A stretch of DNA of 62,330 nt from Syntrophales bacterium (GCA_049302035.1 JBAQLR010000126.1:1-62330), one strand, 5' to 3'. Shown: positions 3,300 through 62,330, counted from the first letter of the stretch. Translations and numbers: made by a program. The notes: a model not told the origin generated them from the letters alone.

Positions 3300-3331
3300 T
3301 TATGATCTCCCGCGGCGGCGCCATGTTTCCA

Positions 3332-4973: not shown

Positions 4974-4998
4974 CGGACAACCTCAAAAAATCGGGATA

Positions 4999-6552: not shown

Positions 6553-6623
6553 ATTTATCGCCCGGCCATTGACCGATCAGATGTTGCCATGATGAACAGG
6601 ATTAGTAGGTTCTAACCTACTAA

Positions 6624-6935: not shown

Positions 6936-6956
6936 AATTTCATCATCCTCCCTTCT

Positions 6957-7379: not shown

Positions 7380-7380
7380 G

Positions 7381-7764
7381 TTATTTCAGCTCCCTCAATG
7401 CCGTATCAATGCCTTTAAATTTTCTCGACATTAATTCCACCGTCAAATTATACATCAGATTATTTTCCGCTAAATTTGTCATCTCCCGGTCAATTTCAAC
7501 CTTATCGCCCGTCTGATGAATCGGGAAATTGACCTCTTTACCGGCAGCGGGCGTCAGATGGTTTTTGTTCGTCATCATCAGCGGCGGCGCGGCGGGAGGG
7601 CTTGACACGGCCTCAGCCAAACTGGCTGTGAAAGTAATATCCTGTGGCTTAAACCCAGGCGTATCAAGGTTAGCGATATTGGAAACGATAACTTTATGTC
7701 TCGCAGCCCGATAATCAAGCATGCCTGAGAGAAGACCAATTGTCTTACCAAATAAAGCTTGCAT
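7381..7764 (-). CDS. flgB: flagellar basal-body rod protein FlgB
   Basis: Contains the SNIANLDTPGFK motif. I moved the start to the ATG at 7762-7764 (MQALFGK..), which has a GGAG RBS. The longer ORF-track start would run across the sigma-54 promoter. Confidence 0.85.
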   Translation of the reverse strand: MQALFGKTIGLLSGMLDYRAARHKVIVSNIANLDTPGFKPQDITFTASLAEAVSSPPAAPPLMMTNKNHLTPAAGKEVNFPIHQTGDKVEIDREMTNLAENNLMYNLTVELMSRKFKGIDTALRELK

Positions 7765-7804
7765 AGTAGTTTCTCCGCCAGTTGTCTTGTGAATATGGAA
7801 ATAT

Positions 7805-7822
7805 AAGCAAGTCACATACCAA
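7805..7822 (-). promoter_or_regulatory. sigma-54 promoter upstream of flgB
   Basis: The reverse complement reads TTGGTATGTGACTTGCTT, with GG-N10-GC spacing. It sits in the 70-nt gap between the regulator stop and the flgB start. Confidence 0.65.
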
Positions 7823-7834
7823 GAACTATAACCG

Positions 7835-9199: not shown

Positions 9200-9275
9200 C
9201 TTCGCCCACCATCGATAATTTATGCCTCTTGTACGTCAATATATTGGCGTGCTTTATTTACCCCGATCGCCAAGG

Positions 9276-10517: not shown

Positions 10518-12867
10518 TTTGGTAACCAGCTTTCCCTGCCAAACGGTTCTCCTCGAGGAAATAATCCGTAACTTTGGGCCAAAATTCTCCGACGGCATTG
10601 GCCTTTACCTGGGTAAAACTTTTCTCCGCCTCGGTAAAATCTTTACGATGGAGCAAACCCTTCCCTATCATGCAGGTCAGCCAGTTGCGCACCTCGCTAT
10701 CCCCTTCCCCTGCCTGAGCAAGGGCTTGACGGTAGGCCCCGATCCCTTCCCGGTACTTCTTTAAGTCATAATAGGCATTGCCGAGACCACCGTATATCTC
10801 TAACAAAATATCAGCCGGATAACTTTTCGGGTACTGCTCATAATCCTTCAATGCCTTAAGATAATTGATAATTGCTCTATCGGACAACTTTGCCGCCCGC
10901 AAAGAACGGCCGTAGTTCCTGTACACGACGCCCTGCTTTTCCCCACGCACAAGCAGGACCTCCGCATAGAGAGAATTGGCCTTAGCCAAGAGACTATTTT
11001 TGTAATAGAGGTCAGCTAAGGCAGTTTTGATATCGTTGCGCAGCGTCCGATCCTTGATACCCCCAACCGTCAGCAAGGCTGATAATTTCTCTTCGGCAGC
11101 GGCGTCCCGGTTTTTCCCCAAGTCGATTTTTGCCAGCGCCAGGGTGATTGCCTTTGTCTGCTCACGGTCGGAACAATTCTTTTGCATGGGCCTGTAGACT
11201 TCTGCCGCGTCATCGTAAAGGCCGATCGACAGCAGGCTCTTACCAATCCTTGCCGCCGTGGCAAAATCATCCGAGGGGATGAAGCCCTTGGCATAGCTCT
11301 GAAAATAGATATCGGCCACCGCCAGGTAATCACCCTTCACATAGCTGGCCTCAACCAGTGACGGAGCTTGCAATTTCATTTTTTTACGCCCTTCCTCGCT
11401 GCTTCTCCCCCGGGGAAAACGGCTTAACAGGGATTGATAAGCGGCAAAGCCCTCTTTTATCCGGTTATCCTTCACCAGGGCGTTTCCCTTTAACAACAGG
11501 ATCGCGGCCTCCTTTTCCCCGCCTGGGGTTTTGGCCAGCAGACTATCGAAGAGTTTAAGCGGCGACTGGTAAGCATCGATGGGGAGCACCTGGAAGGGAT
11601 ATTTTATCTCCGGCTTCGCGACGCCAAGAGCGGCCATAGCCAATAAGCACGTTTCCGCCTCACTATCCGTGGGATATCGATCGCTGAATATACTGTACAA
11701 CCTCAAGGCCATTGCCGTTTCACCCATCGCCGCAGCATTGCGGGCCATCATGTAAAGGGAGCTCTTGCCGAATTCAGCGGCGGGATATATGTTATAGCAC
11801 AGGGCGAAGATCTGTAAGGATAAGCTGAATTTCCCGGCAGTAAAATAATGATTGCCCATATTAATAATGGTTTTGACCGGAATGTCGTGAAAATCCGGCC
11901 ATTTCTTCCGCGCCTCATCGTACCGCTGGCCGGCAAATTCCTCTTTGTGCAGCAGATAGTAACAATCGCCAAGCATAAAATCAGCTGTTTTGGCATATTC
12001 CCCGGCGGGATATTTTTTCAGGTAGGTAAGCAGCCTTTCCGTAGCTCGGTTGTATTTACCCATTTGATTTAATACAGCACCCAACTTGAACATCGCCTCT
12101 GCTAAATAGTCAGAATCGGGATAGGTGCTTATCAAGCGATCCCAGACGCCAGCCGACTCATAAAGAAAACTCAATTTTTCATTGCTTTTGGCCAAATGGT
12201 AATATACCAATTCATTGCCTGCGGCAGGGTCCGGGTAACTGATCAGAATCCCTTTGTATTGATCCACTGCCGTCAGCAATAACTTTGCATCGCCCTTCAG
12301 GCCCCGGAAATAGTGACAATCCGCCGCCATCCGGAGCGCCTGCTCTTTTAGCGCTTCAGGCAAAGAGGGTTGGTTGAGAATGACTCGCAGCATTGCCGCC
12401 GCCTGGTCGTATCGCTGCGCCTTAAATTCTTTCCGGGCGCCATCTAAAACCGATCCCCCCTCCTGCCTGGACGGTGGATCAGTTTTCTTCTGCTCCGTAG
12501 CCGGGGTCACGGAATTTACCTGAATTACGGCCTTGGCAACGGGCAAGATCATCCTCCGGATACGGAAAGTGGAAATCAATTTGCCAACTTTTAAGTCAGC
12601 GGCGACTTGCCGGGCAACTTCCTTCTTGTCATATCTGCCTATATAAATGTGGTACCATTTCCCTTTGCGCGGGATATCCACCCGCTCATAAACTGCTTCG
12701 TATCCTCTGTCCTGCAAAGATTTAATGTGCCGCTCAACCGCCTCGATCCTCTGGTAGGATGCGCCCTGGATGGTGTAATAAGGCACACTCCCGGCGGCGC
12801 CGCCGGTCAGAAAGAGCCAGATAAAAAAAACAAAAAAAAGTATGGGAAACGCTCTGTTCCTGTCCAT
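10510..12867 (-). CDS. exported SPOR-domain / multi-TPR protein
   Basis: N-terminal hydrophobic signal or anchor (FPILFFVFFIWLFLTGGAAG). SPOR-like beta-alpha-beta-beta repeat (YTIQGASYQRIEAVERHIKSLQDRGYEAVYERV..GKWYHIYIGRYDKKEVARQVAADL). This is followed by about 600 aa of TPR-like A/Y/L repeats. Confidence 0.75.
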   Translation of the reverse strand: MDRNRAFPILFFVFFIWLFLTGGAAGSVPYYTIQGASYQRIEAVERHIKSLQDRGYEAVYERVDIPRKGKWYHIYIGRYDKKEVARQVAADLKVGKLISTFRIRRMILPVAKAVIQVNSVTPATEQKKTDPPSRQEGGSVLDGARKEFKAQRYDQAAAMLRVILNQPSLPEALKEQALRMAADCHYFRGLKGDAKLLLTAVDQYKGILISYPDPAAGNELVYYHLAKSNEKLSFLYESAGVWDRLISTYPDSDYLAEAMFKLGAVLNQMGKYNRATERLLTYLKKYPAGEYAKTADFMLGDCYYLLHKEEFAGQRYDEARKKWPDFHDIPVKTIINMGNHYFTAGKFSLSLQIFALCYNIYPAAEFGKSSLYMMARNAAAMGETAMALRLYSIFSDRYPTDSEAETCLLAMAALGVAKPEIKYPFQVLPIDAYQSPLKLFDSLLAKTPGGEKEAAILLLKGNALVKDNRIKEGFAAYQSLLSRFPRGRSSEEGRKKMKLQAPSLVEASYVKGDYLAVADIYFQSYAKGFIPSDDFATAARIGKSLLSIGLYDDAAEVYRPMQKNCSDREQTKAITLALAKIDLGKNRDAAAEEKLSALLTVGGIKDRTLRNDIKTALADLYYKNSLLAKANSLYAEVLLVRGEKQGVVYRNYGRSLRAAKLSDRAIINYLKALKDYEQYPKSYPADILLEIYGGLGNAYYDLKKYREGIGAYRQALAQAGEGDSEVRNWLTCMIGKGLLHRKDFTEAEKSFTQVKANAVGEFWPKVTDYFLEENRLAGKAGYQNE

Positions 12868-12920
12868 TTAATTTAGCCAAGCCCATCTCATCTGTCACTG
12901 TACAAGACGGCACCTGGTTA

Positions 12921-12936
12921 CGCAAGGAACATACCA
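12921..12936 (-). promoter_or_regulatory. sigma-54 promoter of the SPOR-TPR / kinase / regulator operon
   Basis: The reverse complement reads TGGTATGTTCCTTGCG, with GG-N10-GC spacing and the same TGGTATGT..CTTGC flavour as the flgB promoter. It lies about 54 nt upstream of the ATG at 12867. Confidence 0.6.
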
Positions 12937-13092
12937 CTTGTTGAATTACCCGGATAGGAGCCGTCGTTTCTGGCCCCAAAAGAAACAAACGACGGCCCGG
13001 CGCCTCATCCTGTCAATGTAATCGCAAATTCGCCATTTTTTTGACGATGCGTTCATAAATGCGGAGATTTTCCCGCCATGGACAGCCTTCAG

Positions 13093-13175
13093 TAAGTTAG
13101 AAGTTGCTTTCCGGTGGGAAGCAGCTTCGTCAACGCACTTATACCCCTCAAGGGGGTACTGAAGAAAGTCTCGTT
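13093..13175 (+). repeat. copy B of the conserved two-hairpin intergenic element
   Basis: TAAGTTAG at 13093-13100. Hairpin 1 at 13100-13128, linker GTCAACGCACTTAT at 13129-13142, hairpin 2 ACCCC/GGGGT at 13143-13157. It is 41/52 identical to copy C and 42/47 identical to copy A. Confidence 0.65.
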
Positions 13176-13230
13176 CATCGGTGCGACGTCGCTAGAAGAT
13201 CTTGCCCCGGTTGAAAAGCTCAGACACCCA

Positions 13231-13246
13231 TGGCATGCAAACTGCA
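13231..13246 (+). promoter_or_regulatory. sigma-54 promoter of pilZ-motA-motB
   Basis: TGGCATGCAAACTGCA with GG-N10-GC spacing, 58 nt upstream of the pilZ ATG. Confidence 0.65.
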
Positions 13247-13303
13247 TCCAGCGCACTCATAATAAAGACATGCTGTGTACCGCCATTTGAAGGAGCAGAT
13301 TTT

Positions 13304-13843
13304 ATGGCCAATATTAGTGAATCTGATTGCCGGAACAAGCGGGAATTTTCTCGTGTGGGCGTCCACCTGCCCCTGGAAATTCGCCGCGTTACCCCGGAAC
13401 AACAGCGGCTGATCAGCAGCCACCTGGAAGAAAAAATATTAACCGGCGCCAAGCTGCCTCAGGATGTAGCGGACCCCTTGCTTGCAGAATGGCTGAAACT
13501 CCTGCATGGCCAGTTGAACACGATATTGGGCCTGCTGGCGACAAATCGACCCGCCAGCGAGCTGCCACCCTTCAGGACGGAAACCGTCAGCGGAGGAGGA
13601 TTAAGCTTTACCTCCCCGGAGGAGTACGATCTCGGCGACCTGTTGGAATTAAGAGTAATCTTCGACTCTTCCCTGTCCGGCACCCTCTGTTTATACGGGG
13701 AGGTGGTGCAAAAAGAAAAAAGCGAGGAGGGTTACCTAAGCGCGGTCAGCTTTTTAGCCATTGATGAAAGTCTTCGGGACGAAATAATAAAATTCGTTTT
13801 TGAAAAAGAGCGTGAGCTCCTGCGGCAGATGAGGAGGGAATAG
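13304..13843 (+). CDS. PilZ-domain (c-di-GMP receptor-type) protein
   Basis: RxxxR-like NKREFSRV followed by ..TVSGGGLSF.. (the D/NxSxxG motif). The start is set at the ATG at 13304 with a GAAGGAG RBS. The ORF-track TTG start at 13202 lies upstream of the promoter. Confidence 0.7.
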   Translation: MANISESDCRNKREFSRVGVHLPLEIRRVTPEQQRLISSHLEEKILTGAKLPQDVADPLLAEWLKLLHGQLNTILGLLATNRPASELPPFRTETVSGGGLSFTSPEEYDLGDLLELRVIFDSSLSGTLCLYGEVVQKEKSEEGYLSAVSFLAIDESLRDEIIKFVFEKERELLRQMRRE

Positions 13844-27571: not shown

Positions 27572-29812
27572 ATGAGTATGGATAAAAAAAGCAACGCCCG
27601 GGTAAAAGAGATTTATGCCGTGCTTTTCCTGACGCTGGGCGTTTTACTGCTGCTGTCTTTGCTTTCCTACCAACCGGAAGACCCCTCCTTTAACCGCTAT
27701 CTGAGCGAGCCTCTGCCGCCTCACAATCTTATCGGCGTCTGGGGCTCGTACAGCGCAGATGCCCTCTTTCAGCTCCTCGGCTTAGCGGCTTTTTTGCTGC
27801 CGCTGTTTTTTTTCATCATCGCCGCCAGGTATTTCCGGCGCCACACTCCGGGTATCCACCCCGGCCTCTCCGGTTTTTTAGCTTTAACTTTTCTGGCCGC
27901 CGCAGCGGGATTAAGCAATCTGCTTTTTCTGGGAATAAGTGTAAATAACATACAGGCCGGGGGACTGCTGGGAGCCATCCTCGCCAAGTCATTGAACCAT
28001 TATTTCAACCCCTTGGGCGCCGGTCTGCTGCTTACCATCATGGCCCTTATTCCCCTTTTATTCCTGGGCGATTTGTCGCTCCTCACCTTGATAAAAAAAG
28101 TGGCTGTTCCCTTTTTTTGGGCGGGTCGCCTGCTCTCCGGCTTCGAGCGCCCCAATAACGAACCTGCCGTAAGCATTAATGAGAATAAAAAAGTGCCAAA
28201 TCCGGCCGAGCTTCTGGAACTGGACGCGCCGCTCATCGAAAACTTTTCCTGGGAAGAGAAGAAAAAGGGCCAACCGGCCGCCCCGCCCCGCTTCGACTTC
28301 CCCGACACCGGCGGCGTCTTTCAACTGCCACCGCTTTCGCTCCTCGACCATGTGGAAAGAAAAGATGCCAAAGTTAAAAAGGAAAGCCTGCTGACCAATG
28401 CCCGTCTTCTGGAAAGCAAACTCGCCGACTTCGGCGTGGCGGCCAAGGTAACGGAAATTAAACCGGGACCCGTCATCACCATGTATGAATTGGAACCGGC
28501 GCCGGGGGTTAAGATTAACCGGATCACCAATCTGGCCGATGATCTTGCTTTAGCGCTGAAGGCCCCCAGCGTCAGAATCGTGGCTCCCATCCCCGGCAAG
28601 GCAGTGGTGGGCATCGAGATCCCCCAGCCGGAAAGAGAACCGGTGCAACTGAAAGACGTACTGGATAACGAAACCTTTCTGAACTCCACCTTCCGCCTGC
28701 CCATTGCCCTGGGAGTCGATATTGCCGGCTTGCCGGTGGTAACCGACCTGATCAGGATGCCCCACCTCCTGATTGCCGGCACTACGGGTTCGGGCAAAAG
28801 CGTGGCGCTCAATGCCCTGATCTGCAGCATTCTCTTCAAGGCGCCTCCAGACGAGGTGAAATTTCTCATGATCGACCCTAAACGCCTGGAATTTTCTTCC
28901 TATGAAGGAATACCGCACCTGCTCCACCCGGTGGTGGTAGATCCCAAAATGGCGGCCCAGGTGCTGAAATGGGCGGTAGATGAAATGGAACGGCGTTACC
29001 AGATCATCAGCCTCCTGGGGGTGAAGAATATTGATAGCTACAACCAAACATTGAAAAATGACAAGGATGACCGGGTAAGCAGCCGCCTCAGGGAACTTCT
29101 GAAGAAGCAGGCAGAGGCTCAGGGTGTAGATCAGGAAGAACAGGAAATCCAGATACCCCAGAAGCTTCCCTACATTGTGATCATCATTGATGAATTGGCC
29201 GATTTGATGCTGGTGGCCCAGCGCAACGTGGAGGAATCCCTGGCCCGTCTGGCACAGATGGCCAGGGCAGCGGGCATTCACCTGATCCTCGCCACCCAGC
29301 GGCCCTCGGTGGACGTCATTACCGGCGTGATCAAGGCCAACTTCCCGACGCGCATCTCTTTTCAAGTTTCCTCGAAGGTTGACTCGCGCACCATCATTGA
29401 TCAGCATGGGGCAGAAAAGCTGCTGGGAGCGGGCGACATGCTGTACATCCCGCCCGGCACCTCCAAACTGACCCGCATCCACGGCGCCTATGTCTCGGAC
29501 AAGGAAATCGATAAGATCGTCGCTTTCATACGGGACCAGGCACGGTCGGCCTATGATGAAACAATCCTGCATTTTGATCCGGCTCTGCCGGAAGAGGAAA
29601 AAAAAGACGATGATTACGATGAAAAATACGATGAAGCCGTGGAGCTGGTCAGCGACCTGGGACATGCCTCCGTGTCCCTCGTCCAGCGTTATATGAAGAT
29701 CGGCTACAACCGGGCCGCCCGGATCGTCGAACGTATGGAGGTGGAAGGCGTCGTAGGTCCGTCGGATGGTGTGAAGCCGCGCAAGGTGCTGGCGAGGAGA
29801 ATGCCCCATTGA
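27572..29812 (+). CDS. ftsK: DNA translocase FtsK
   Basis: N-terminal TM segments, a linker, a motor domain with Walker A GTTGSGKSV, and a C-terminal gamma winged helix. Confidence 0.95.
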   Translation: MSMDKKSNARVKEIYAVLFLTLGVLLLLSLLSYQPEDPSFNRYLSEPLPPHNLIGVWGSYSADALFQLLGLAAFLLPLFFFIIAARYFRRHTPGIHPGLSGFLALTFLAAAAGLSNLLFLGISVNNIQAGGLLGAILAKSLNHYFNPLGAGLLLTIMALIPLLFLGDLSLLTLIKKVAVPFFWAGRLLSGFERPNNEPAVSINENKKVPNPAELLELDAPLIENFSWEEKKKGQPAAPPRFDFPDTGGVFQLPPLSLLDHVERKDAKVKKESLLTNARLLESKLADFGVAAKVTEIKPGPVITMYELEPAPGVKINRITNLADDLALALKAPSVRIVAPIPGKAVVGIEIPQPEREPVQLKDVLDNETFLNSTFRLPIALGVDIAGLPVVTDLIRMPHLLIAGTTGSGKSVALNALICSILFKAPPDEVKFLMIDPKRLEFSSYEGIPHLLHPVVVDPKMAAQVLKWAVDEMERRYQIISLLGVKNIDSYNQTLKNDKDDRVSSRLRELLKKQAEAQGVDQEEQEIQIPQKLPYIVIIIDELADLMLVAQRNVEESLARLAQMARAAGIHLILATQRPSVDVITGVIKANFPTRISFQVSSKVDSRTIIDQHGAEKLLGAGDMLYIPPGTSKLTRIHGAYVSDKEIDKIVAFIRDQARSAYDETILHFDPALPEEEKKDDDYDEKYDEAVELVSDLGHASVSLVQRYMKIGYNRAARIVERMEVEGVVGPSDGVKPRKVLARRMPH

Positions 29813-31146
29813 AAGCCGTGCACATTGTCAGCCTCGGCTGTGCCAAAAATCAGGTAGATGCGGAGGTTATGGCCGCAAGTCTGGAAGGGGGCGGTTACCA
29901 CATCGTTCCCGACCCTCGGCTGGCTACCATCATCATGGTTAACACCTGCGCCTTCATCCTGCCCGCCAAGGAAGAATCGATCGAAGAGATTCTGCGCGCT
30001 GCCGCCTGTAAAAAGACCGACCGCTGCCGTTACCTGGTGGTAACCGGCTGCCTGGCCCAGCGTTACGGTAAAAGTCTGCTCCCGGAATTGCCGGAGGTTG
30101 ACCTCTTCCTGGACATAAACGAGGTGCCGCATATCGCCGGGCATCTGGATAGACTGAGGGAACAAAAAAGCCCTGCACCCGTGGCCATCGTCAAAAACCC
30201 CTCCTTCCTCATGAATGCCGGGCACAGCCGTTTGCTTGCCACCCCTCCTTACACCGCTTACCTGAAAATTGCCGAAGGTTGCTCAAATTTCTGCTCCTAC
30301 TGCATCATTCCCGCTCTCCGGGGAAAGGCCAGAAGCAGACCACCGGAGGATATTCTGACCGAAGCGGAAAATCTGGCGTCAAAAGGCGTCCGGGAAGTCA
30401 TCCTTACCGCCCAGGATACTACTGCTTACGGGCGGGAGCTGAAGGGACGTCCCGGCCTGAGCGAGCTTTTAAAAAAGCTGGCGGACATCAAGGACCTGCG
30501 CTGGATCAGACTCCTTTATACCTACCCCGGGAAACTTGATGCCGCGACGCTCACGGTCATGGCCGAAGCAGAAAAAGTTTGCTCCTATGTAGATATACCA
30601 ATCCAGCATATTGATGATGATATCTTGAAAGCCATGCGCCGGCGGGGTGATAGTGCCCAAATAGGCCAAAGCGTTGCGTTGATAAGAAAGATCATCCCCG
30701 ACGTGGCTTTGCGTACCTCGCTGATTGTGGGTTTCCCCGGCGAAACACCTGCCAGATTCAAGAGACTGGTGAATTTTATCGCCGCCGCAAAGTTCGATCA
30801 CCTGGGCGTCTTTACATATTCCCAGGAAGAAGAGACAACCGCCGCCATGCTGCCGGGCCATGTTACGGAAAAAACGAAAGGACGACGACGCCAAAGGCTG
30901 ATGGAGGAGCAGGCCACTATTTCCAGCGCCATTAATCAAGGTCTGGTGGGCTCTGCACAGGAAGTGCTGATCGAAGGCCCAAGCGACATCCCTGCCTACC
31001 CCTACATCGGCCGCAGCCGCCGCCAGGCGCCCGACGTAGATGGTGTGACCTATATCAAAGGGGAGGCGCTCAAGGCAGGAGATTTTGTGAGCGCCACCAT
31101 CCGCGCCGCCGACACCTACGATCTTTATGCAGAGGTAAACAAATAA
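29809..31146 (+). CDS. rimO: ribosomal protein S12 methylthiotransferase RimO (MiaB-family radical SAM)
   Basis: UPF0004 N-domain (SLGCAKNQVDAE), radical-SAM motif CSNFCSYC and a TRAM C-terminus. The TTG start overlaps the ftsK TGA stop (TTGA). Confidence 0.85.
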   Translation: MKAVHIVSLGCAKNQVDAEVMAASLEGGGYHIVPDPRLATIIMVNTCAFILPAKEESIEEILRAAACKKTDRCRYLVVTGCLAQRYGKSLLPELPEVDLFLDINEVPHIAGHLDRLREQKSPAPVAIVKNPSFLMNAGHSRLLATPPYTAYLKIAEGCSNFCSYCIIPALRGKARSRPPEDILTEAENLASKGVREVILTAQDTTAYGRELKGRPGLSELLKKLADIKDLRWIRLLYTYPGKLDAATLTVMAEAEKVCSYVDIPIQHIDDDILKAMRRRGDSAQIGQSVALIRKIIPDVALRTSLIVGFPGETPARFKRLVNFIAAAKFDHLGVFTYSQEEETTAAMLPGHVTEKTKGRRRQRLMEEQATISSAINQGLVGSAQEVLIEGPSDIPAYPYIGRSRRQAPDVDGVTYIKGEALKAGDFVSATIRAADTYDLYAEVNK

Positions 31147-31159
31147 ACATGGAGAAAAC

Positions 31160-32326
31160 ATGCAAAAAGTCTGTTTGATGCTACTGGCATTTGCCCTTCT
31201 AATCCTGTCCCTGGCAGCCTGCAGCGGCCAGAAAGGCCCGGCCGTCAGAATCGGCCTCATTGCCGAGTTGACGGGCGATATGCCGGCAGTGGGGGAATCC
31301 TGTAAGAAGGCCGCGGAAATGGCGGTACAGGAGGTCAATGACCGCGGTGGCCTGGCAATAGCCGGCAAAAGGTACAAGCTCGAGCTATTTGTTGAAGACA
31401 ACGGGGGGAAGGCCGATCAATCTGCGGCGGTCGCACAGAAGCTGATCACGCAACGGCAGGTGCACGCCCTCGTCGGACCCAATGCCACACGCTATGCCTT
31501 GCCGGCCGCAGAGATTGCGGAAAGCTCGAAGGTGGTCCTCATCACTCCCTGGTCCACCAGCCCCAAAACCACCCTGGACGCCCGCACCAATATTCCCAAA
31601 AAATATGTCTTCCGCGCTTGCTTTACCGATCCCTTTCAGGGTCGCGTCGTGGCCAATTTCGCCCTGGACAATCTCAAGGCCAGGAAAGCCGCCGTGCTCT
31701 ATGATGTCGCCTCGGAATACAACAAAGGCATTGCGGAAATATTCAAGACAACCTTTGAACAAAAAGGCGGCCAGGTTGTCGCTTTCGAGACCTATACCAC
31801 CAATGACAAGGACTTCTCCGGACAGTTGACCAAGATCAAGCGCGCCGCCCCGGAGCTGATCTTTTTACCTAACTATTACAGCGAGATACCGTTGCAGATA
31901 CAACAGGCGAAGCGTCTGGGCATCAACGTGCCTTTCGTAGGAAGCGATTCCTGGGGTTCCCGGGAATTACTCAAGCTTTGCGGCCAGGATTGCGAGGGAG
32001 CCTTTTTCAGCACCCATTACGCCGCCGACCTGGGCACGCCGGCAGCCACAAAGTTTATTGCCGGTTACAAGGCCAGATACGGCAAGATGCCCGATGATGT
32101 GGCAGCCCTCACCTATGACTCTTTCGGGCTCCTGTTGGAGGCCCTGAAGAGCGTCCCGGCCCCGGACCGGACCGCTGTCCGGAATGCCCTGGCCAGTATC
32201 TCACATTATGAAGGTGTCACGGGGAACATGCAGTTCCGGGAAGGCTCCACCGACCCTATCAAGAGCGCTGTCATCCTGAAGATCAAGGATGGAAAATTTG
32301 CTTACTACACCAGTGCGAACCCCTGA
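31160..32326 (+). CDS. branched-chain amino acid ABC transporter substrate-binding lipoprotein (LivK/LivJ family)
   Basis: Lipobox LSLAAC and a type-I periplasmic binding fold. It is followed by livH/M/G homologues. Confidence 0.85.
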   Translation: MQKVCLMLLAFALLILSLAACSGQKGPAVRIGLIAELTGDMPAVGESCKKAAEMAVQEVNDRGGLAIAGKRYKLELFVEDNGGKADQSAAVAQKLITQRQVHALVGPNATRYALPAAEIAESSKVVLITPWSTSPKTTLDARTNIPKKYVFRACFTDPFQGRVVANFALDNLKARKAAVLYDVASEYNKGIAEIFKTTFEQKGGQVVAFETYTTNDKDFSGQLTKIKRAAPELIFLPNYYSEIPLQIQQAKRLGINVPFVGSDSWGSRELLKLCGQDCEGAFFSTHYAADLGTPAATKFIAGYKARYGKMPDDVAALTYDSFGLLLEALKSVPAPDRTAVRNALASISHYEGVTGNMQFREGSTDPIKSAVILKIKDGKFAYYTSANP

Positions 32327-32329
32327 CGG

Positions 32330-33205
32330 ATGACTTACCTTTTCCAGCAAATGCTGAACGCCCTTCAGGTCGGCAGTATCTATGCCCTCATCGCCCTGGG
32401 TTATACGATGGTGTACGGCATCCTCACCATGATAAACTTCGCCCACGGCGACCTTTTCATGGTGGGCGCTTTCCTGTGCTTTCTGGCGGCGACCTGCCTT
32501 GGTCTGCCTTTTATCCCGGCCCTGCTGCTTTCCATGGGCGGCACGGCAATCCTCGGTGTTGTCATTGAGCGTTACGCTTACAAACCGTTGCGTCAAGCTC
32601 CGCGTGTTTCCGCCATCATTACCGCCCTCGGGGTGGGTTTGTTTCTCGAAAATTTTACCCTGGCTTTAAGCCCCTACCCCCGGCAGATTCCCCCGCTCTT
32701 CGGCAATACAACCTGGGTTTTATTGAACGTCTCCATCTCCTCACTGCAAATATTTATCATCCTTTTGTCTCTCTTCCTGATGTTGCTGCTAGACTTGACG
32801 GTACGGCACACCCTGGTGGGAATGGCCATGCGCGCCATCGCCTGGGACAAAATAACGGCTTCCCTGATGGGAGCACCGGTGGACACGATCATTTCCCTGA
32901 CTTTTGCCATCGGCGCCGGTCTGGGCGGAGCGGCGGGCGTCATGTACGGCCTTGCCTACCCGGTCATCGATCCCTACATGGGTGTCATGATGGGGTGGAA
33001 AGCATTTATCGCGGCAGTAGTGGGCGGCATCGGCAATATGCGCGGCGCCATGCTCGGCGGCTACATCCTCGGCGCCGTGGAAATCATGGTGGTAGCTTTT
33101 ATGCCTTCCACCTACCGCGATTTTGTCGCCTTCATCCTTTTGCTGGCCCTGCTCATCTTCCGGCCTCATGGCATGTTGGGGAAACCCCACTCTGAAAAGG
33201 TTTAA
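32330..33205 (+). CDS. livH: branched-chain amino acid ABC transporter permease LivH
   Basis: 291-aa polytopic membrane protein of the LivH family. Confidence 0.9.
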   Translation: MTYLFQQMLNALQVGSIYALIALGYTMVYGILTMINFAHGDLFMVGAFLCFLAATCLGLPFIPALLLSMGGTAILGVVIERYAYKPLRQAPRVSAIITALGVGLFLENFTLALSPYPRQIPPLFGNTTWVLLNVSISSLQIFIILLSLFLMLLLDLTVRHTLVGMAMRAIAWDKITASLMGAPVDTIISLTFAIGAGLGGAAGVMYGLAYPVIDPYMGVMMGWKAFIAAVVGGIGNMRGAMLGGYILGAVEIMVVAFMPSTYRDFVAFILLLALLIFRPHGMLGKPHSEKV

Positions 33206-55955: not shown

Positions 55956-56031
55956 TCCCCAGTAGCTCAGTCGGTAGAGCGGGTGGCTGTTAACCACCAT
56001 GTCCGTGGTTCGAGTCCGCGCTGGGGAGCCA
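55956..56031 (+). tRNA. tRNA-Asn (anticodon GTT), CCA encoded
   Basis: I folded the cloverleaf by hand. Acceptor stem TCCCCAG/CTGGGGA, D stem GCTC/GAGC, anticodon stem GGTGG/CCACC with loop CTGTTAA, T stem CGTGG/CCGCG with loop TTCGAGT, discriminator G, then CCA. Confidence 0.9.
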
Positions 56032-56092
56032 ATATAAGACGGAACTGGGCATGCCTGGAAGAGAGATCCAGAACCTAGTTCCGTTGCCGAAC

Positions 56093-56146
56093 GAAGTGCA
56101 CCTGCCAGGGCCGCCAAGCTCCCTGACAGGTGCACTTCTTCTTTAA
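56093..56146 (+). terminator. strong Rho-independent terminator after tRNA-Asn
   Basis: A 12-bp stem GAAGTGCACCTG/CAGGTGCACTTC, extended by CAGGG/CCCTG and followed by TTCTTT. Confidence 0.7.
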
Positions 56147-56264
56147 CGATCCTGATTTCATCGACAAGCAGCTTTAAATATTCCTTCCCAAAGTTTGATA
56201 CTAAGTTGCATTCGTATATAGACTAACATACAACATCCTCCATAAAAAAACTATGGAGGGAGAT

Positions 56265-56375
56265 ATGCGACCACCGACATTATTAAGCGATGACCAGAAG
56301 GAGCGATTAAAGCATCTATTGTCAAAGACAGAGACGAAAGCGGATTTTCAACGGCGTGATACGGGTATTATTATA
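56265..56375 (+). mobile_element. possible IS630-family transposase N-terminal (HTH) remnant, 36 codons
   Basis: ATG with a GGAGGG RBS. The translation MRPPTLLSDDQKERLKHLLSKTETKADFQRRDTGIII* resembles the L-S/T-x5-L-x2-L..RRAxIIL start of IS630 ORFs. It lies in an approx. 38% GC stretch next to a tRNA. Called from memory of the family only. Confidence 0.3.
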
Positions 56376-56765
56376 TGAATAATGACACGTTTTCCCGAGA
56401 GCAAATCAAAAACAGCCTCTCGAAGCGCCGATAGCCTTCCGATTTTCTTCCCTCCCCCATCAAATCTTCGAACCTTTACCCTATATATAGGCCGCCCCAC
56501 GCGGCTTCTTGAACAAAGGATTGAATGCGACCTTGCAGGTCTCATCAATCCTTATTGGTTGGGCAAGCTTGATCACGCACGTACCCTGTGCCCTGTTGTT
56601 CACACATTAGAAGGGTAAAGGAGCAACCCCATTGTCGCAAAAGCCGCGAACGATGCTCCTGCAATAAATGTCGCCGGGGCACCGAACCCGTCTGGATGCC
56701 CGATCGGGGTCCGGCGGGGCACAAGACCCCGCCTAAAAACAACCCATTACTATTGATGACGATTG

Positions 56766-58493
56766 TTACCACATACTTGTGGCAACTTGCCTGCCGAAGC
56801 TATCCCAAGCTCCCAGCCATATTCCGCCACCTGTTGGGGTGAAGGTCTGACCGGTGCTTGTTATCGGGTTCAGCGTAAATGATTTGCTTCGATCCGCCGA
56901 CGCGAGTGAGAATTCAGCCCTGGCTGAATTACCTGAATTGTCATTCATCTGTGCTGACAGCCAGTCATTGGTGAGCCCGGCGGGCAGGGTCCAGGTAACT
57001 GTTGCGTTGCCGCCGGTAAAGGCGCGCATCTCGGCCATTATTGGCGAGGTGATGGTCGGGAACGAGGCAGCCGTCAATTCGGTGTTCAGGTACGGACGCT
57101 TCCGGAGCTTTTCGGTGTAGGTGGCTGACAAGGTTGACCCGATGTAGAGTTGAACGGTGTAGACCTCTCCTGTATCGGCGATGGCGGCAATTTGACTGTC
57201 ATTCATGTAATAATTATTGCCATTGTACATGTCCCCTTGAATAGCAAACCACTCGGTGTTGATCTGACTGATCAGAGTAACTGGACTAGTAAGACCGACA
57301 CCGTTAACCACTGCTGACGTAATGCCCTTGCTGCCACGGTCTTCGATATTGATCCATAGGCCCGTAGTTATCGTGGCAGGCGTATTGACGGATTGATACT
57401 CTGCTCTGGCCCTAATGCGAACATGAGCAATGCGCTGGTTCCCCTGCATATACCATTTCCCATCTACCTTTTTGATCATGTGAAATGGCTCCGGACCATC
57501 ATTATCTACCTTGCCATTCTGAATGACATCAAACGCAACCACGGCCGTTCCCATTGCCGCATCCATGGATTGTATGGCGATATTGGCAAACGATATGCCG
57601 ATAATGTCCTGTTCAGTGGTTAGTTCAGAGAGGAAAGAGGCCAGGTTCTGCCCATCGTCTATGAAGGTAGCGCTATCAAACAGACTCAGCAGGGTCGGGT
57701 TGGTCTCACTGGGAAGGCTCGTGGCAAAAAGAGCGGAAAATGCCTTGAACCCAGCGCTGATCTTCTGTATGTCGGTTACGCCGGTTGCCACGTCTGTCGT
57801 GTTGTCCAGGACACCGGTATAGATCCCGGTCGCAATATTTGAGGTCATCTGCTGCTGGGTGATGATATTTGTAATGGTTGCAACACCTGTGGTCGTATCT
57901 GTTGTCACCCTGAGCACGTCCAGAGCCGCATCAAGACCGGAGTGGTCGGTGCTGAAAGAGGCCCGCAGCAGGTCGATCGAACTGCTGACACCCACTGCCT
58001 GTAGGACAGGAAGAAGCTTGGCCCTGAGGGCCTCGGACTGTGCCGTCAACTGAACTGCGGTAAGGGTGGAGAAGGCGCCGTTGTCAAAATATGTTTTGGC
58101 AATCGACCCGGCGATATTCGCCACAATCAAATCGGTGAGCGGGGTGATGTTGATCGTGCCTCCCACGTCCGCCGATGTGCCGGCTGAGTACAGGTGATAC
58201 TCGTTGCCGCCGACATAGCCGTCAGCCCGCACCATGTAGGGTGCTTTCAGACCGGTAACATCCACGGTGTATTTGCCATTGGCCTCGATGGTAACGGTTT
58301 TTGTCTGAGCGGTGGGGGTTGTGCTGTCCTTAATTGTCACCGTCCCGATAATCGGCGCACCGGCCGCCGCAGTTCCCGTTAGCGTTGTCGAGCGTGCGGG
58401 CGCTTCGTCTCCACTACCTCCGCAGGCCAATATAAGTAGCGCGATAGCCGCGAGCAGGCTTGTTAACTTGATAAATTTCCAGATACTTCTCAT
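56766..58493 (-). CDS. Thr/Gly/Ala-rich lipoprotein of unknown function (575 aa)
   Basis: Signal peptide plus lipobox (LLILACGGSGD). The N-terminal region looks like a carboxypeptidase-regulatory/Ig-like beta domain (GTVTIKDS..VTIEANGKYTVDVTGL). I do not recognise the rest. The start is set at the ATG at 58493 with an AGGAG RBS. Confidence 0.7.
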   Translation of the reverse strand: MRSIWKFIKLTSLLAAIALLILACGGSGDEAPARSTTLTGTAAAGAPIIGTVTIKDSTTPTAQTKTVTIEANGKYTVDVTGLKAPYMVRADGYVGGNEYHLYSAGTSADVGGTINITPLTDLIVANIAGSIAKTYFDNGAFSTLTAVQLTAQSEALRAKLLPVLQAVGVSSSIDLLRASFSTDHSGLDAALDVLRVTTDTTTGVATITNIITQQQMTSNIATGIYTGVLDNTTDVATGVTDIQKISAGFKAFSALFATSLPSETNPTLLSLFDSATFIDDGQNLASFLSELTTEQDIIGISFANIAIQSMDAAMGTAVVAFDVIQNGKVDNDGPEPFHMIKKVDGKWYMQGNQRIAHVRIRARAEYQSVNTPATITTGLWINIEDRGSKGITSAVVNGVGLTSPVTLISQINTEWFAIQGDMYNGNNYYMNDSQIAAIADTGEVYTVQLYIGSTLSATYTEKLRKRPYLNTELTAASFPTITSPIMAEMRAFTGGNATVTWTLPAGLTNDWLSAQMNDNSGNSARAEFSLASADRSKSFTLNPITSTGQTFTPTGGGIWLGAWDSFGRQVATSMW

Positions 58494-59010
58494 GATGCGT
58501 TTCTCCTTGTTTAAAATTAAACACCTTGTTGTTAAAATGTAACTATTCAGTCCCTCTCCCGAGAACAACCTACCCCCTTTAAGAAGGAAGTCAAGGGATT
58601 TTAGAGGTTGTAACAATTACATCCCTCTTTTCAGTCCCTTCCAGAAAATGACGACTCGATAGCCATTATGTTATTCGCTGTAAGGCAAATGGCATGCCGT
58701 GTTGGGTGATGTAGGTTGAAAAAATGGACACCGATCTCATGGATGCTGGATCTGGTTCAGCAGGGCAACCGCCAGCATGTTAAAGAGCGAGGGTAAAAAA
58801 TTTATGATACGGGATTTTTCTTGACAACGTTGTCGCAATTATTGTATCGACAACACACCTTGGAGTTGTCGGGGGAGCGGATGCTGCTGAAAAGCGGTAT
58901 CACCGCGAAATTGCAGCGGTTAGTATGATTTTAACCTCGCGGCTTCTTAGCCGCATATGGTTACTTTGTAGTGATTTTGTGTACGCTTTTTCTCGCGAGG
59001 TTCTTGGACC

Positions 59011-59364
59011 ATGATTGAATACCTTCCCATTCTTGTCATGCTGTGCCTCGGCTTGTTCATTGCCGGCCTGATGGTCGGCGCATCACATTTCCTCGGTCAT
59101 AACATTCGTAAGAAAACAAAACGTGCCACCTATGAATGCGGCATGCAGACCATCGGTCCGGCGCATATGAGAATGAATATCCGCTACTATATCATGGCCA
59201 TGCTGTTTTTGATTTTTGACCTTGAGGTTATGTTCCTCTATCCCTGGGCGGTGGTGGCGGGTGGTCTCAAAATGTTCGGTTTTCTGGAGATGCTGTTTTT
59301 CATTTTTATTCTCCTTGTCGGTTATTTTTACGTATGGAAGAAAGGTGCCTTGGAATGGGAATAG
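59011..59364 (+). CDS. nuoA: NADH-quinone oxidoreductase subunit A
   Basis: 117 aa, 3 TM segments, ..YECGM.. motif. Confidence 0.9.
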
Positions 59365-59852
59365 ATGACACCGCTGCCGCTTCTGTGCAGGATGTGATTA
59401 ATTGGGCCAGGAAAAATTCCGTTTGGCCGGTGACTTTCGGTCTGGCTTGCTGCGCGCTGGAGATGATGGTGGCCAGTTCGGCCACTTACGACATCGCCCG
59501 TTTTGGCTCGGAGGTCTTCCGCCCCTCTCCTCGCCAGGCGGATCTCATGATTGTGGCCGGCACGGTCACAAAAAAGATGGCCCCCATGCTGAAGCGCATT
59601 TACGAGCAGATGCCGGAGCCCAAATGGGTTATTGCCTATGGCGCCTGCGCCTGTAGCGGGGGAATTTTTCAGACTTACAATGTCGTCCAGGGGGTGGATG
59701 AGATCATCCCCGTGGATGTCTATGTTCCCGGCTGTCCGCCGCGCCCGGAAGGTCTGCTCAAAGGCTTGATCGCTTTGCAGGAAAAGATTGGCAGGGAAGC
59801 GCCCGGTTCCAGGAAGCTGGTCAGTTTGCCCTGGGGTGAGAGCAATGGTTAG
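59355..59852 (+). CDS. nuoB: NADH-quinone oxidoreductase subunit B
   Basis: [15 protein letters not shown] and GCPPRPE (N2 cluster ligands). The start is set at the ATG at 59355. Confidence 0.9.
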
Positions 59853-60342
59853 GTGCATGGCAGGCGACTTGCTGAGAGGGAAATATCCCGACGCAGTGCT
59901 GAATATTGTCGAGTTCCGGGGCGAAACTACCATCACCGTAAGCTTAGGGCAGCTACGGGACGTCATGGCTTTTCTGAAGGAAAGCGAGAACTGCTCCTAC
60001 GACTTGCTGCTGGACCTTGCCGGTGTGGATCGTGGCGACATTTCGCCGCGTTTTATGGTTGTTTATCTGCTGCATTCCATGAAATTTAGCAACCGGTTGA
60101 GAATCAAGGCCGAGGTGGCAGAAGGAGCTGCGGTAGATACGGTGAGCGATATCTGGAAGGCGGCCGATTGGCTGGAAAGGGAGGCTTACGACATGTTCGG
60201 CATCGGCTTCCGCAATCATCCGGATTTGCGGCGCATTCTGCTGGAAGAGGATTTTGCCGGTTTTCCTTTAAGAAAGGATTATCCCCTGGCCGGACCTGAC
60301 TTCGGGAAACTTTTCAATGTATGTTTGCCGGAAGAGCAGTGA
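59845..60342 (+). CDS. nuoC: NADH-quinone oxidoreductase subunit C
   Basis: ..[26 protein letters not shown].. 30-kDa subunit signature. The start is either 59845 or 59857. Confidence 0.9.
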
Positions 60343-60399: not shown

Positions 60400-61575
60400 A
60401 TGGCTGAAACTCGTTATATGACGATCAATATGGGGCCACAGCACCCGGCAACGCACGGGGTGTTGCGCCTGCTTTTGGAATTGGATGGAGAAATCGTTGT
60501 CAAGGCCGTGCCGCACATCGGTTACCTTCATCGGGGGGTGGAAAAGCTCTCCGAATCCCTAACCTACCCCCAGGGCCTGACCTTGACGGACCGTCTGGAC
60601 TATACCAGCGCCCTTTCCAACAATCTGTCCTATTGTCTGGCCGTGGAAAAGCTTCTGGACATCAAGATTCCCCAGAGGGCACGGTATCTGCGGGTCATGT
60701 TTGCCGAGCTCCAGCGGATTTCGGCCCATCTGCTTTGGCTTGCCACCCACGCCCTCGATCTCGGCGCCATGACGCTGCTTTTTTACGCCTTCCGGGAGAG
60801 AGAAGCGGTCATCGAGATCCTGGAGTTGGTGACGGGAGCCCGTTTGACGCCCAGTTTTATCCGGATCGGCGGTCTGGCGGCCGATATTCCCGATACCTTT
60901 TTGCCCCGCGTCAAGGAGTTCCTTGCGGACATGCCGCGACACATTGCGGAATATGAGACGCTTCTGACGGATAATATCATCTGGAAAAAAAGGACGCAAA
61001 ATATCGCGCCTCTGTCTGCGGAGGAGTGCATCAATTACGGCGTCACGGGGCCGGTGTTGCGGGCTTCCGGCGTTAATTACGACGTGCGGAAGGCCTACCC
61101 CTATTCCAGTTACGAGGATTTTGATTTTGAAATTCCCCTGGGCACGAAAGGTGATGTCTATGATCGTTATCTCGTGCGGCTGCTGGAGATGAAGCAGTCC
61201 ATCAGGATTGCGGAGCAGGTTATCGCCAAATTGCCCGCGGGTTCGGTTGTCGCTGCCGATGCCTTGCAGGTGGTGCCGCCGGCAAAGGCGCAGGTGGGCG
61301 AGGATATTGCGGCGCTCATCAGGCACTTTAAGATCATGCAGGAAGGCTTCAAGGTTCCAGTGGGCGAGGTTTACGCGTCCATCGAATCGTCGAAGGGCGA
61401 GCTTGGTTTTTACTTCATCAGTGACGGCGGCAACAAGCCCTTTCGGATGAAGATCAGGCCGCCGTCCTTTATAAACTTGGGCGCCTTGCCCAAAATGATT
61501 GAAGGGCAAATGGTGGCCGATGTCGTAGCAGCAGTTGGCAGTATCGACATTGTGCTGGGTGAGATAGACAGATAG
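60400..61575 (+). CDS. nuoD: NADH-quinone oxidoreductase subunit D
   Basis: MTINMGPQHPATHGVLRL.. 49-kDa subunit signature. 391 aa. Confidence 0.95.
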   Translation: MAETRYMTINMGPQHPATHGVLRLLLELDGEIVVKAVPHIGYLHRGVEKLSESLTYPQGLTLTDRLDYTSALSNNLSYCLAVEKLLDIKIPQRARYLRVMFAELQRISAHLLWLATHALDLGAMTLLFYAFREREAVIEILELVTGARLTPSFIRIGGLAADIPDTFLPRVKEFLADMPRHIAEYETLLTDNIIWKKRTQNIAPLSAEECINYGVTGPVLRASGVNYDVRKAYPYSSYEDFDFEIPLGTKGDVYDRYLVRLLEMKQSIRIAEQVIAKLPAGSVVAADALQVVPPAKAQVGEDIAALIRHFKIMQEGFKVPVGEVYASIESSKGELGFYFISDGGNKPFRMKIRPPSFINLGALPKMIEGQMVADVVAAVGSIDIVLGEIDR

Positions 61576-61585
61576 GATTTCATTT

Positions 61586-62330
61586 ATGGCAAATGTAATA
61601 TTCAGCTCCTGGCGGCAGGAAATCGTCGATAACAGGAACCTGGCGGAGAAAGACTGCAAGGACGCACGGAATATCGCCCTTCCTGCCGACTTTGGCGTGC
61701 AGGAGCCGATTAAAGCCTTTATGGGCTGGGATGGCATTGTGCTTCGCGATGACGATGTCGATATCGTGGATATGTGCGCCAAGTATGCCGTTGCGGTGCA
61801 GGCGGAGTCCTGCGGCAAATGTTTCCCCTGTCGTATCGGCACCCGGATTGTCAGCGATTGGCTGCAGGAAATTGCCGCCGGCGCCGGGCAAGTGGCGCAC
61901 CTGCAAAAAATTACAGACCTGGCGGGCAGCATTCGGAATGGCGCCCTTTGCTCCATCGGCCAGACCGGCATGCTGCCGATTCTCCATGCCCTGGAACATT
62001 TCCCCCAGTCTTTTCAAAAGGCGATCGGCGCGGGCGAGAAGGTTAAGGAAGGCAAATATCTTTTTGCCGTCACAGCCCCTTGCACCAGCGCCTGCCCATC
62101 CAGTCTCGATATCCCCCGTTATCTGGAAGAAATCAGTGAACAGAAATTTACGGAGTCGCTGGCGACCATCCGGAAGAGCGTCTGCATGGCGGGCACCTTG
62201 GGAAGGGTTTGCATCAGGCCCTGTGAAGCGAACTGCCGCCGGGCCAATCTCGATGAAGCCCTTGCCATTAAGTACCTGAAGCGTTTCGTGGCCGATGAAG
62301 AAACAGAAAAGCGTCGGCGCCCGGCGGTTG
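61586..62330 (+). CDS. NuoF-type [4Fe-4S] domain fused to a GltD/SfrB/FdhB-like NAD(P)H-flavin oxidoreductase (partial, runs off the right edge)
   Basis: I translated a stop-free frame from the ATG at 61586 to the window end; it is not in the ORF track. It contains ESCGKCFPCRIGT..GALCSIGQ (NuoF N3-cluster domain without the FMN/NADH domain). This is followed by APCTSACPSSLDIPRYLEEI..GTLGRVCIRPCEANCRR (GltD N-terminal 2x[4Fe-4S] domain). Confidence 0.8.
   Translation, partial: MANVIFSSWRQEIVDNRNLAEKDCKDARNIALPADFGVQEPIKAFMGWDGIVLRDDDVDIVDMCAKYAVAVQAESCGKCFPCRIGTRIVSDWLQEIAAGAGQVAHLQKITDLAGSIRNGALCSIGQTGMLPILHALEHFPQSFQKAIGAGEKVKEGKYLFAVTAPCTSACPSSLDIPRYLEEISEQKFTESLATIRKSVCMAGTLGRVCIRPCEANCRRANLDEALAIKYLKRFVADEETEKRRRPAV

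Follow-up and report, generated by a model that had tools for sequence, protein, structure and literature searches.

What feeds electrons into a complex I whose operon places an unfamiliar gene where nuoE, nuoF and nuoG are expected? The question is raised by the end of a 62,330-nucleotide stretch of DNA from a Syntrophales bacterium (GCA_049302035.1 JBAQLR010000126.1:1-62330), referred to here as the window, in which nuoA, nuoB, nuoC and nuoD are followed by the start of another gene, here called gene B, that runs off the end of the sequence. The window is the entire contig C126 of a genome of 2.75 Mb in 203 contigs, 96% complete, and B is therefore cut short by the assembly, which breaks here, the gene itself not being truncated. 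When the remainder of B and of the operon is read from a second contig, the gene content suggests that B, together with a selenocysteine (Sec)-containing formate dehydrogenase (FDH) alpha subunit, FdhA, encoded after nuoN, replaces NuoEFG as the NADP(H)- and formate-linked head of a menaquinone-reducing, proton-pumping complex I, possibly working in reverse. A probability of about 0.6 is given to this reading.

Gene B in the window

Gene B starts at an ATG at 61586 on the plus strand, ten nucleotides after the nuoD stop codon (TAG, 61573-61575). The stop codon and spacer (61573-61585) include an AGGA-like sequence 8 nt before the ATG, a putative ribosome-binding site. From 61586 the frame is free of stop codons to the end of the window at 62330, giving 248 codons and one further nucleotide for this 5' part of an SfrB/FdhB-type gene. 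Residues 62-145 match the Pfam domain NADH_4Fe-4S (PF10589; E 4.9e-22, 78 bits against a cut-off of 23.5), the N3-cluster domain of NuoF, and residues 163-242 match Fer4_20 (PF14691; E 4.1e-17, 62.5 bits against a cut-off of 25.8), the two-cluster domain of GltD-type flavoenzymes. Complex1_51K (PF01512), the fold that binds flavin mononucleotide (FMN) and NADH, gave no match in either half of B or in P0001, a 650-residue homologue. The motifs ESCGKCFPCRIGT, LCSIGQ, APCTSACPS, and GRVCIRPCEANCRR are all found in the translation, and in the N3-type domain C76, C79, C82, and C122 are invariant across 15 homologues.

A preliminary description of the window, made from its sequence, had pointed to just such an unlisted, stop-free frame, in which a NuoF N3-cluster domain without the FMN/NADH fold passes into a GltD-type two-cluster domain, and had likened this pairing to that of SfrB and of the NADP-dependent FDH beta subunit. 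All of this is borne out, the last point by the make-up of the full-length protein given below. A frame of 249 codons on the opposite strand (61580-62329) is rejected as a shadow frame.

Gene B across the contig gap

The rest of B is found at the start of contig C87 of the same genome (locus L004, the coordinates of which are used below). P0001, a metagenomic protein, is 98% identical to the window part of B, and its residues 260-650 align with bases 1-1173 of C87 at 99.5% identity. P0001 is encoded on an independent metagenome contig, L003, with which both the end of the window and the start of C87 can be aligned, 32 nt apart. These 32 nt and the dangling base of the window make exactly 11 codons, so that the frame is kept from one contig to the other, and L003 carries nuoD-B-nuoH-nuoI-nuoJ contiguously.

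The 3' part of B (L004 1-1176) encodes flavin adenine dinucleotide (FAD) and NAD(P)H Rossmann folds, with matches to PF07992, PF00070, and PF13450, as well as a YRR motif and a C-terminal CxxC. In a PDB search the GltD part matches NfnB (4ylf_B; E 1.5e-91) and is homologous also to 5jca_L and to StnA/NfnA of the Stn-type transhydrogenases (9bov, 9n5u, 8oh5); no FdhB or SfrB structure homologous to B was found in this search. In the NfnB of T. maritima, Tyr310 and Arg311-312 bind the 2'-phosphate of NADPH (as cited in bioRxiv 10.1101/717884). Homologues of B are named 'formate dehydrogenase (NADP+) beta subunit' by their sources (Joint Genome Institute, JGI), and the domain pairing is the one found in the beta subunit belonging to the NADPH-dependent FDH of M. 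thermoacetica (sfrB2, with the alpha subunit encoded by sfrA2 and fdhF3). These comparisons support the view that B is a full-length SfrB/FdhB-type flavoprotein of ~650 residues in which the C-terminal part of NuoF is fused to GltD.

The Fer4_20 profile matches B in two places. Profile positions 29-111 match residues 163-242, and positions 1-29, with the CxxC, match the extreme C-terminus (L004 1066-1152, residues 356-384 of the C87 part). Because both ends are matched, the two-cluster domain looks circularly permuted or split around the flavin domains. An AlphaFold2 model of B, with a mean predicted local distance difference test (pLDDT) score of 67 and values below 50 for the Fe-S domain (164-236) and the C-terminus (575-650), was too weak and was not used for fold searches.

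The complex I operon

The order of the operon is nuoABCD-B-nuoHIJKLMN-fdhA, with 10 nt between nuoD and B, 49 nt between B and nuoH, and 217 nt between nuoN and fdhA. Within the window, all on the plus strand, are nuoA (59011-59364, 117 residues; PF00507 Oxidored_q4, E 2.7e-36), nuoB (59334-59852, 172 residues; PF01058 Oxidored_q6, E 2.1e-32, with the motif GCPPRPE), nuoC (59857-60342, ~161 residues from its probable start; PF00329 Complex1_30kDa, E 2.1e-42), and nuoD (60400-61575, 391 residues; PF00346, E 1.1e-115), which is of the quinone type, with the motifs QHPATHGVLR and RLDY. The listed start of nuoC, 59788, would overlap nuoB, and an ATG at 59857 or 59845 is likelier. No Sec was seen among the cluster ligands of NuoB in the translation, where the positions of the N2-cluster motif are all Cys.

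Outside the window, B is followed on C87 by nuoH (L004 1226-2212), nuoI (2230-2637), nuoJ (to 3170), nuoK (3180-3491), nuoL (3508-5556), nuoM (5636-7144), nuoN (7164-8627), and fdhA (8845-11508), after which comes the convergent gene prfC (11560-13380). The 11 core subunits NuoA-D and NuoH-N are thus encoded in one operon, and the sequence beyond 62330 holds the nuoH-N genes that the preliminary description had advised looking for, directly after B, and not a terminator and an unrelated operon. Domain scans of both contigs found no nuoE, FMN-type nuoF, or separate nuoG in the operon. Since it is without NuoE and an FMN-binding NuoF, the enzyme is not a canonical 14-subunit complex I.

The NuoD of the operon is the only one of complex I type in the genome, the remaining matches being fused hydrogenase-like frames. 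The four FMN-type NuoF homologues (PF01512) are all in other clusters, of the Bfu/Hyd type, and a search of the genome found no separate NuoG-like gene. The futalosine menaquinone-pathway genes MqnA/MqnD are present, which makes a menaquinone-linked enzyme plausible in this genome without dsrA and with a cytochrome bd oxidase.

A scan of the 217-nt gap between nuoN and fdhA found no terminator-like site. Overall, site counts in the promoter and terminator scans came to ~1.6-2.5 times the means for shuffled sequence, in two of the four cases about 2 standard deviations or more above the mean, and all sites were weak consensus matches. Apart from one terminator-like site, on the window's minus strand, the predicted sites are inside genes and not at gene junctions.

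A candidate formate dehydrogenase partner

The frame after nuoN has 887 codons with one in-frame TGA. It scores 882 bits against TIGR01591 (cut-off 666) and 802 bits over its full length against FdsA of R. capsulatus (6tg9_A). The UGA is at the catalytic Sec position (U345-H346, in HCARL-U-HSTTV), the catalytic Arg motif LRGQNNVQG is present, and the genome has tRNA-Sec and SelB. There is a hairpin with a GGUCU-type loop 3' of the UGA that resembles a Sec insertion sequence, although with a z-score of -0.18 against shuffles this is consistent at most. Judged by its sequence, fdhA is a bona fide, catalytically intact Sec formate dehydrogenase alpha subunit. Its N-terminal 260 residues keep all the ligands of the N1b-, N5-, N4-, and N7-type clusters, and these are invariant in 20 alpha subunits, both live and dead, the latter having lost their catalytic residues. 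By these ligands FdhA is also a candidate equivalent of NuoG.

It had been proposed in the preliminary description that a GltD-like donor module at the NuoE/F slot docks to the NuoBCD arm. The slot is occupied as described, but by homology B could not dock alone and would need FdhA, the putative NuoG equivalent. A soluble partner such as an SfrA- or FDH-like subunit had been taken there as a sign against a link to Nuo; an FDH partner is indeed present, but inside the same operon and itself a NuoG homologue. Since the docking alpha subunit would be an intact Sec-FdhA after nuoN, the candidate for the input module resembles FdhAB and probably acts on formate/CO2 besides NAD(P)H.

The N-terminal domain of FdhA was modelled with NuoD, NuoC, and NuoI as four chains from alignments made for the purpose. 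The model scored 0.72, with 0.33 for the best of three controls. Of 80 solved complexes 58 attain the score mark applied, as against 2 of 110 mismatched pairs, counts that are only rough for four chains and alignments of this kind. At least 96% of contacts are common to the runs, with a partner pLDDT of 78 or more. In the modelled interface the N5-type motif of FdhA (residues 91-121) lies against the first cluster motif of NuoI (53-60) and residues 289-315 of NuoD. Because structures of complex I have been solved, the pass may come from those structures, and the model is taken as a likeness and not as binding.

A second FdhA is encoded elsewhere in the genome (contig C102, ~29175-32496, minus strand), in a frame of 986 residues with no in-frame TGA that scores 819 bits against TIGR01591. 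It adjoins a NuoF-like gene near the contig end and is probably an NAD-linked FDH of the Bfu/Hyl type with no relation to the nuo operon.

Distribution of gene B in other genomes

A B-like paralogue of some kind is present in all 101 sampled species of the order. The orthologue group, defined by at least 55% identity, is found in 13 of these, in 10 of which it is directly after nuoD. The preliminary description had suggested that GltD-like genes in nuo operons be surveyed. In a scan of 80 loci from species genomes the nuoD-B-nuoH placement recurs in many genomes. It is seen in dozens of metagenome-assembled genomes (MAGs) of Thermodesulfobacteriota, where the gene next to B is in most cases that of an FDH alpha subunit, either live or dead and NuoG-like, and the MAGs with B after nuoD are labelled Syntrophales, Syntrophorhabdus, Smithellaceae, Deferrisomatales, Ca. 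Acididesulfobacter, and other Thermodesulfobacteriota. Linkage of B to nuo genes also occurs in MAGs of Nitrospinota and Acidulodesulfobacterota, and in a Nitrospinae MAG (L099) and in L101 B and a dead alpha subunit precede nuoA instead.

Five gene orders can be told apart. In type (i), nuoABCD-B-alpha-nuoH-N, the alpha subunit is dead, and type (ii) is the same with a live Sec-FdhA in this position, the G slot. Type (iii), nuoABCD-B-nuoH-N-FdhA, is that of the present genome and of a Smithellaceae MAG. Type (iv) is FdhA-nuoABCD-B-nuoH-N, and type (v) is B-alpha-nuoABCDH and onwards. Detached B-FdhA pairs occur besides these. In the dead alpha subunits the Sec/Cys-His and Arg residues are gone, and the best score, which is below the cut-off, is against NuoG, but every N-terminal Fe-S ligand is kept. 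The retention of these ligands makes sense for a subunit that would serve as wiring.

Dead alpha subunits are found in L035-L038 and L062-L066, and live ones in the slot in L080-L083, L091, L103, and L106; L069 and L093 have a dead alpha subunit in the slot and a live one upstream. The series, from an intact Sec-FDH to dead proteins with all Fe-S ligands, is like the path by which NuoG is presumed to have arisen from a formate dehydrogenase.

In the operons with an empty G slot (the present genome, L039/L067, L077, and L117), a Sec-FdhA flanks the operon in four of four fully covered loci. The order nuoABCD-B-nuoH of the present genome is shared by L039/L067, from another family. In a FastTree phylogeny of 105 B proteins the present copy is in a clade of 28 members, all of which are nuo-linked, and to account for nuo linkage over the tree as a whole takes at least 7-10 gains or losses, which implies repeated recruitment of B into one slot. 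The FdhA of the present genome and that of the other type (iii) operon are sisters, and the Nuo and B proteins of the present genome are closest to type (i) relatives of the same family. From these two relationships it seems that a dead gene in the G slot has been lost here and that the live FdhA is used instead.

In other Syntrophales (L018-L034) there is a widespread paralogue of B, with 43-47% identity, after which comes a gene for a short protein matching only the first ~200 residues of FdhA/NuoG. This paralogue and the short Fe-S protein are a separate, apparently soluble pair.

Proposed electron path

If B and FdhA are assembled on the complex I arm, the GltD-type FAD of B would be the site at which NADP(H) reacts, by homology with NfnB and GltD, and electrons would pass through the two [4Fe-4S] clusters of B to its NuoF N3-type cluster. 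From there they would enter the NuoG-homologous N-terminal Fe-S chain of the Sec-FdhA, which, by homology with FdsABG and complex I, would also be joined to the Mo/W site for formate/CO2. The His-ligated N5-type cluster of FdhA would hand electrons to NuoI, and these would go on through NuoB (N2) to menaquinone, a transfer to which proton translocation by NuoH and NuoJ-N would be coupled. What is predicted is a 13-subunit NADPH/formate:menaquinone oxidoreductase. Gene and domain content, conserved ligands and active-site residues, and gene order are what has been observed; physical assembly, cofactor specificity, direction, and proton coupling are predictions made from them.

In this Syntrophales bacterium, which does not reduce sulfate, the enzyme could also run in reverse, menaquinol and the proton-motive force giving NADPH or formate. 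That it does so for the most part is a tentative and rather doubtful proposal, in which the proton-motive force would drive electrons from menaquinol, reduced through the oxidation of acyl-CoA by way of electron-transferring flavoprotein, to the Sec-FdhA and the NADP site, yielding cytoplasmic formate and NADPH. If true, this would be a complex I-based answer to the need for reverse electron transport in the syntrophic oxidation of fatty and aromatic acids, and the formate made would be an interspecies electron carrier.

Alternative explanations

The most serious alternative is that B and FdhA form a soluble NADP+-dependent FDH, of the type of Moorella FdhAB or Geobacter SfrAB, merely co-transcribed with an 11-subunit, ferredoxin-fed complex I-like enzyme, the link being metabolic or regulatory through ferredoxin or NADPH pools. 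This is thought unlikely, but there is a good deal in its favour. The domain make-up of B and the JGI names of its homologues are those of an NADP-FDH beta subunit, and the M. thermoacetica enzyme is a soluble alpha/beta protein. For headless 11-subunit enzymes the general view is that ferredoxin or several donors feed them (PMC11238625). In the genomes of family f12, in Desulfacinum, and in others there are stand-alone B-FdhA pairs of the same clade.

Several of the results weigh against B and FdhA as the head of the complex, and some of these fit the soluble enzyme directly. The f12 genomes have a headless, orthologous nuoABCDHI operon (NuoD 78-80% identical) and, elsewhere, a detached B-FdhA pair, and the closest relatives of the present FdhA and of the B clade include these stand-alone pairs. 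The pair can therefore be encoded apart from nuo and may be a soluble NADP-FDH. Residues at the modelled interface show no discriminating pattern between nuo-linked alpha subunits and the nearest stand-alone ones, from f12. In the operon itself, seven genes lie between B and fdhA, and the 217 nt given above lie between nuoN and fdhA, so that co-transcription of fdhA is presumed. The choice of NADPH over NADH is predicted from a single motif, the YRR in the C87 part of B. Finally, L003 is 92.9% identical to the window over 60692-62330 and 99.6% identical to L004 1-3240. This step in identity at the assembly break points to strain mixing in the MAG or to a recombination boundary, and, with the gene spanning two contigs, a strain mosaic is possible.

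Against a soluble enzyme, on the other hand, stands the placement of its two genes. It would be unexpected for one of them to be embedded in a membrane-complex operon, exactly at the nuoE/F slot, with the second closing that operon. Insertion at this slot has recurred independently many times. The dead alpha subunits with intact Fe-S ligands, present in many of the operons, would have no obvious use in a soluble FDH, and a Sec-FdhA flanks every fully covered operon in which the G slot is empty. For these reasons a head made of B and FdhA on complex I is preferred.

A second alternative would make the attached module a flavin-based bifurcating or confurcating device, as has been proposed for Sulfurimonas, in which the FAD of B would split electrons between, or merge them from, the quinone-linked chain and a low-potential carrier, either ferredoxin or the formate site. 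In reverse the complex would give NADPH together with a reductant of low potential. The bifurcating NfnB and StnA/NfnA are homologues of the GltD part of B, such a device is proposed for Suden_1824 (bioRxiv 10.1101/717884), and there is a Por-Bfu cluster just upstream in the window. However, no second exit path from the FAD is visible in the sequence, homologous GltD-type sites (GltD, dihydropyrimidine dehydrogenase, and the NADPH site of StnA) are not all bifurcating, and no ferredoxin-binding subunit is encoded in the operon, so that bifurcation is considered improbable.

That the locus is an assembly or binning artefact, or is decaying, and that the frame is not part of a functional gene joined to nuoH-N, is rejected as extremely improbable, since despite the cut at the contig end, the identity step in L003, the lack of the operon in the same-genus genome G043, and the position at a synteny break beside tRNA-Asn and a repeat, the frame is kept exactly over the 32-nt gap, an independent contig bridges it without interruption, all cofactor ligands are intact, and the same order is found in another family (L039/L067).

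Surroundings of the operon

The Por-Bfu cluster is followed by tRNA-Asn (GTT, 55956-56031), and synteny with G043, a sister species of the same genus, ends at the end of this tRNA. Past its tRNA-Asn, G043 has DNA that matches contig C75 of the present genome. In the spacer that follows (56032-56766), ~56196-56337 matches the ends of G043 contigs C33, C35, C28, and C45 at 91-95%, and ~56358-56560 matches contigs C163 and C9 of the present genome at their ends, and also C52 and C13. These stretches look like multi-copy repeats or the ends of mobile elements. The break in synteny and the repeat-like stretches after tRNA-Asn place the nuo-fdh operon at a hot spot of rearrangement or insertion. G043 has neither a B orthologue nor a complex I-type NuoD, its best match being a fused hydrogenase-like frame of 48% identity, and the whole nuo-fdh operon is therefore an accessory trait, patchy in the genus. 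Between the repeat and nuoA, on the minus strand, is a frame of 616 residues (56766-58616) with an N-terminal hydrophobic segment and a Cys, resembling a lipoprotein signal.

Comparison with known systems

The electron donor of the headless 11-subunit complex I enzymes is still called unresolved (2024, PMC11238625). Operons such as this one name a concrete, cis-encoded candidate for the head, a module of the FdhAB/SfrAB type. If assembled, such a complex I would couple NADPH and formate/CO2, and not NADH, to the quinone pool and the proton gradient, which, if true, would bear on energy conservation and reverse electron transport in syntrophs. The relatives, in which there are detached B-FdhA pairs, live FDH in the G slot, and dead NuoG-like proteins, are a natural series for the evolution of the N-module, and the live-to-dead series of alpha subunits would, if the proposal is true, replay the origin of NuoG from a formate dehydrogenase.

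Among known systems the module is closest to FdhAB of Moorella thermoacetica and SfrAB of Geobacter sulfurreducens. In all of these the beta subunit joins a NuoF-type [4Fe-4S] domain to GltD-type two-cluster, FAD, and NAD(P)H domains without the FMN domain, and the alpha subunit joins a NuoG-like N-terminus to a Sec molybdopterin domain, split at the UGA by gene callers. Those enzymes, however, are soluble and their genes adjacent, whereas here B is between nuoD and nuoH, and FdhA after nuoN, in the only complex I operon of the genome. With the canonical N-module (NuoE/F/G) the present module shares the slot in the operon, the N3-type domain in B, and the N1b-, N4-, N5-, and N7-type ligands in the alpha subunit, and the modelled interface of the alpha subunit with NuoI and NuoD has the geometry of complex I, possibly taken over from the solved structures. 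It differs in being without NuoE and N1a, in having a GltD-type FAD site and an NADPH-type YRR in place of the FMN/NADH fold, and in that the putative NuoG equivalent is a live formate dehydrogenase outside the G slot.

Complex I-type enzymes take other input modules as well, such as FpoF, for F420H2, in Methanosarcina, and flavodoxin or ferredoxin input in Campylobacter jejuni and in NDH-1. These have in common with the present operon an 11-subunit core and an input part specific to the lineage, but the input proteins are unrelated, the donors are others, and there is no molybdopterin FDH.

A closer likeness is NUO-2 of Nitrospina gracilis, in which NuoF2 is without an FMN site and has N3, extra [4Fe-4S] clusters, and a nucleotide-binding domain, and NuoG2 has N1b, N4, N5, N7, and one extra cluster; reverse electron transport was proposed for it without biochemistry (Lucker et al. 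2013, PMC3578206). A homologue encoded in one operon in Kuenenia was tentatively annotated, likewise without biochemistry, as a formate:quinone oxidoreductase (PMC3578206, citing Strous et al. 2006). As far as descriptions can be compared, both have what B has, an FMN-less substitute for NuoF that is encoded with nuo genes and has a nucleotide site, N3, and extra [4Fe-4S] clusters, and the Nitrospinae MAG L099 has the same B family beside a dead alpha subunit and nuoABCD. The gene order is different, and the extra [2Fe-2S] cluster reported for NuoF2 is not seen in B.

In Sulfurimonas denitrificans the NfnB-like protein Suden_1824 was proposed to replace NuoF in a complex that reduces NADP+ by reverse electron transport (2019, bioRxiv 10.1101/717884). 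By its description the complex I of chemoautotrophic Campylobacterota is like the present one in that an NfnB/GltD-like, NADPH-type flavoprotein with the conserved Tyr-Arg-Arg takes the place of NuoF, but it keeps a non-canonical NuoE and two copies of NuoG and has no catalytic FDH. In the searchable full-text literature no paper on this operon type in Syntrophales or Thermodesulfobacteriota was found, and an earlier mention in Pereira et al. 2011 or de Almeida et al. 2016 is possible. Operons of a similar kind had already been described for Kuenenia and Nitrospina (PMC3578206) and for Sulfurimonas (bioRxiv 10.1101/717884), so that the idea has precedents and the present copy is not a first sighting. 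It is one more, slightly rearranged, example of a predicted kind of complex I.

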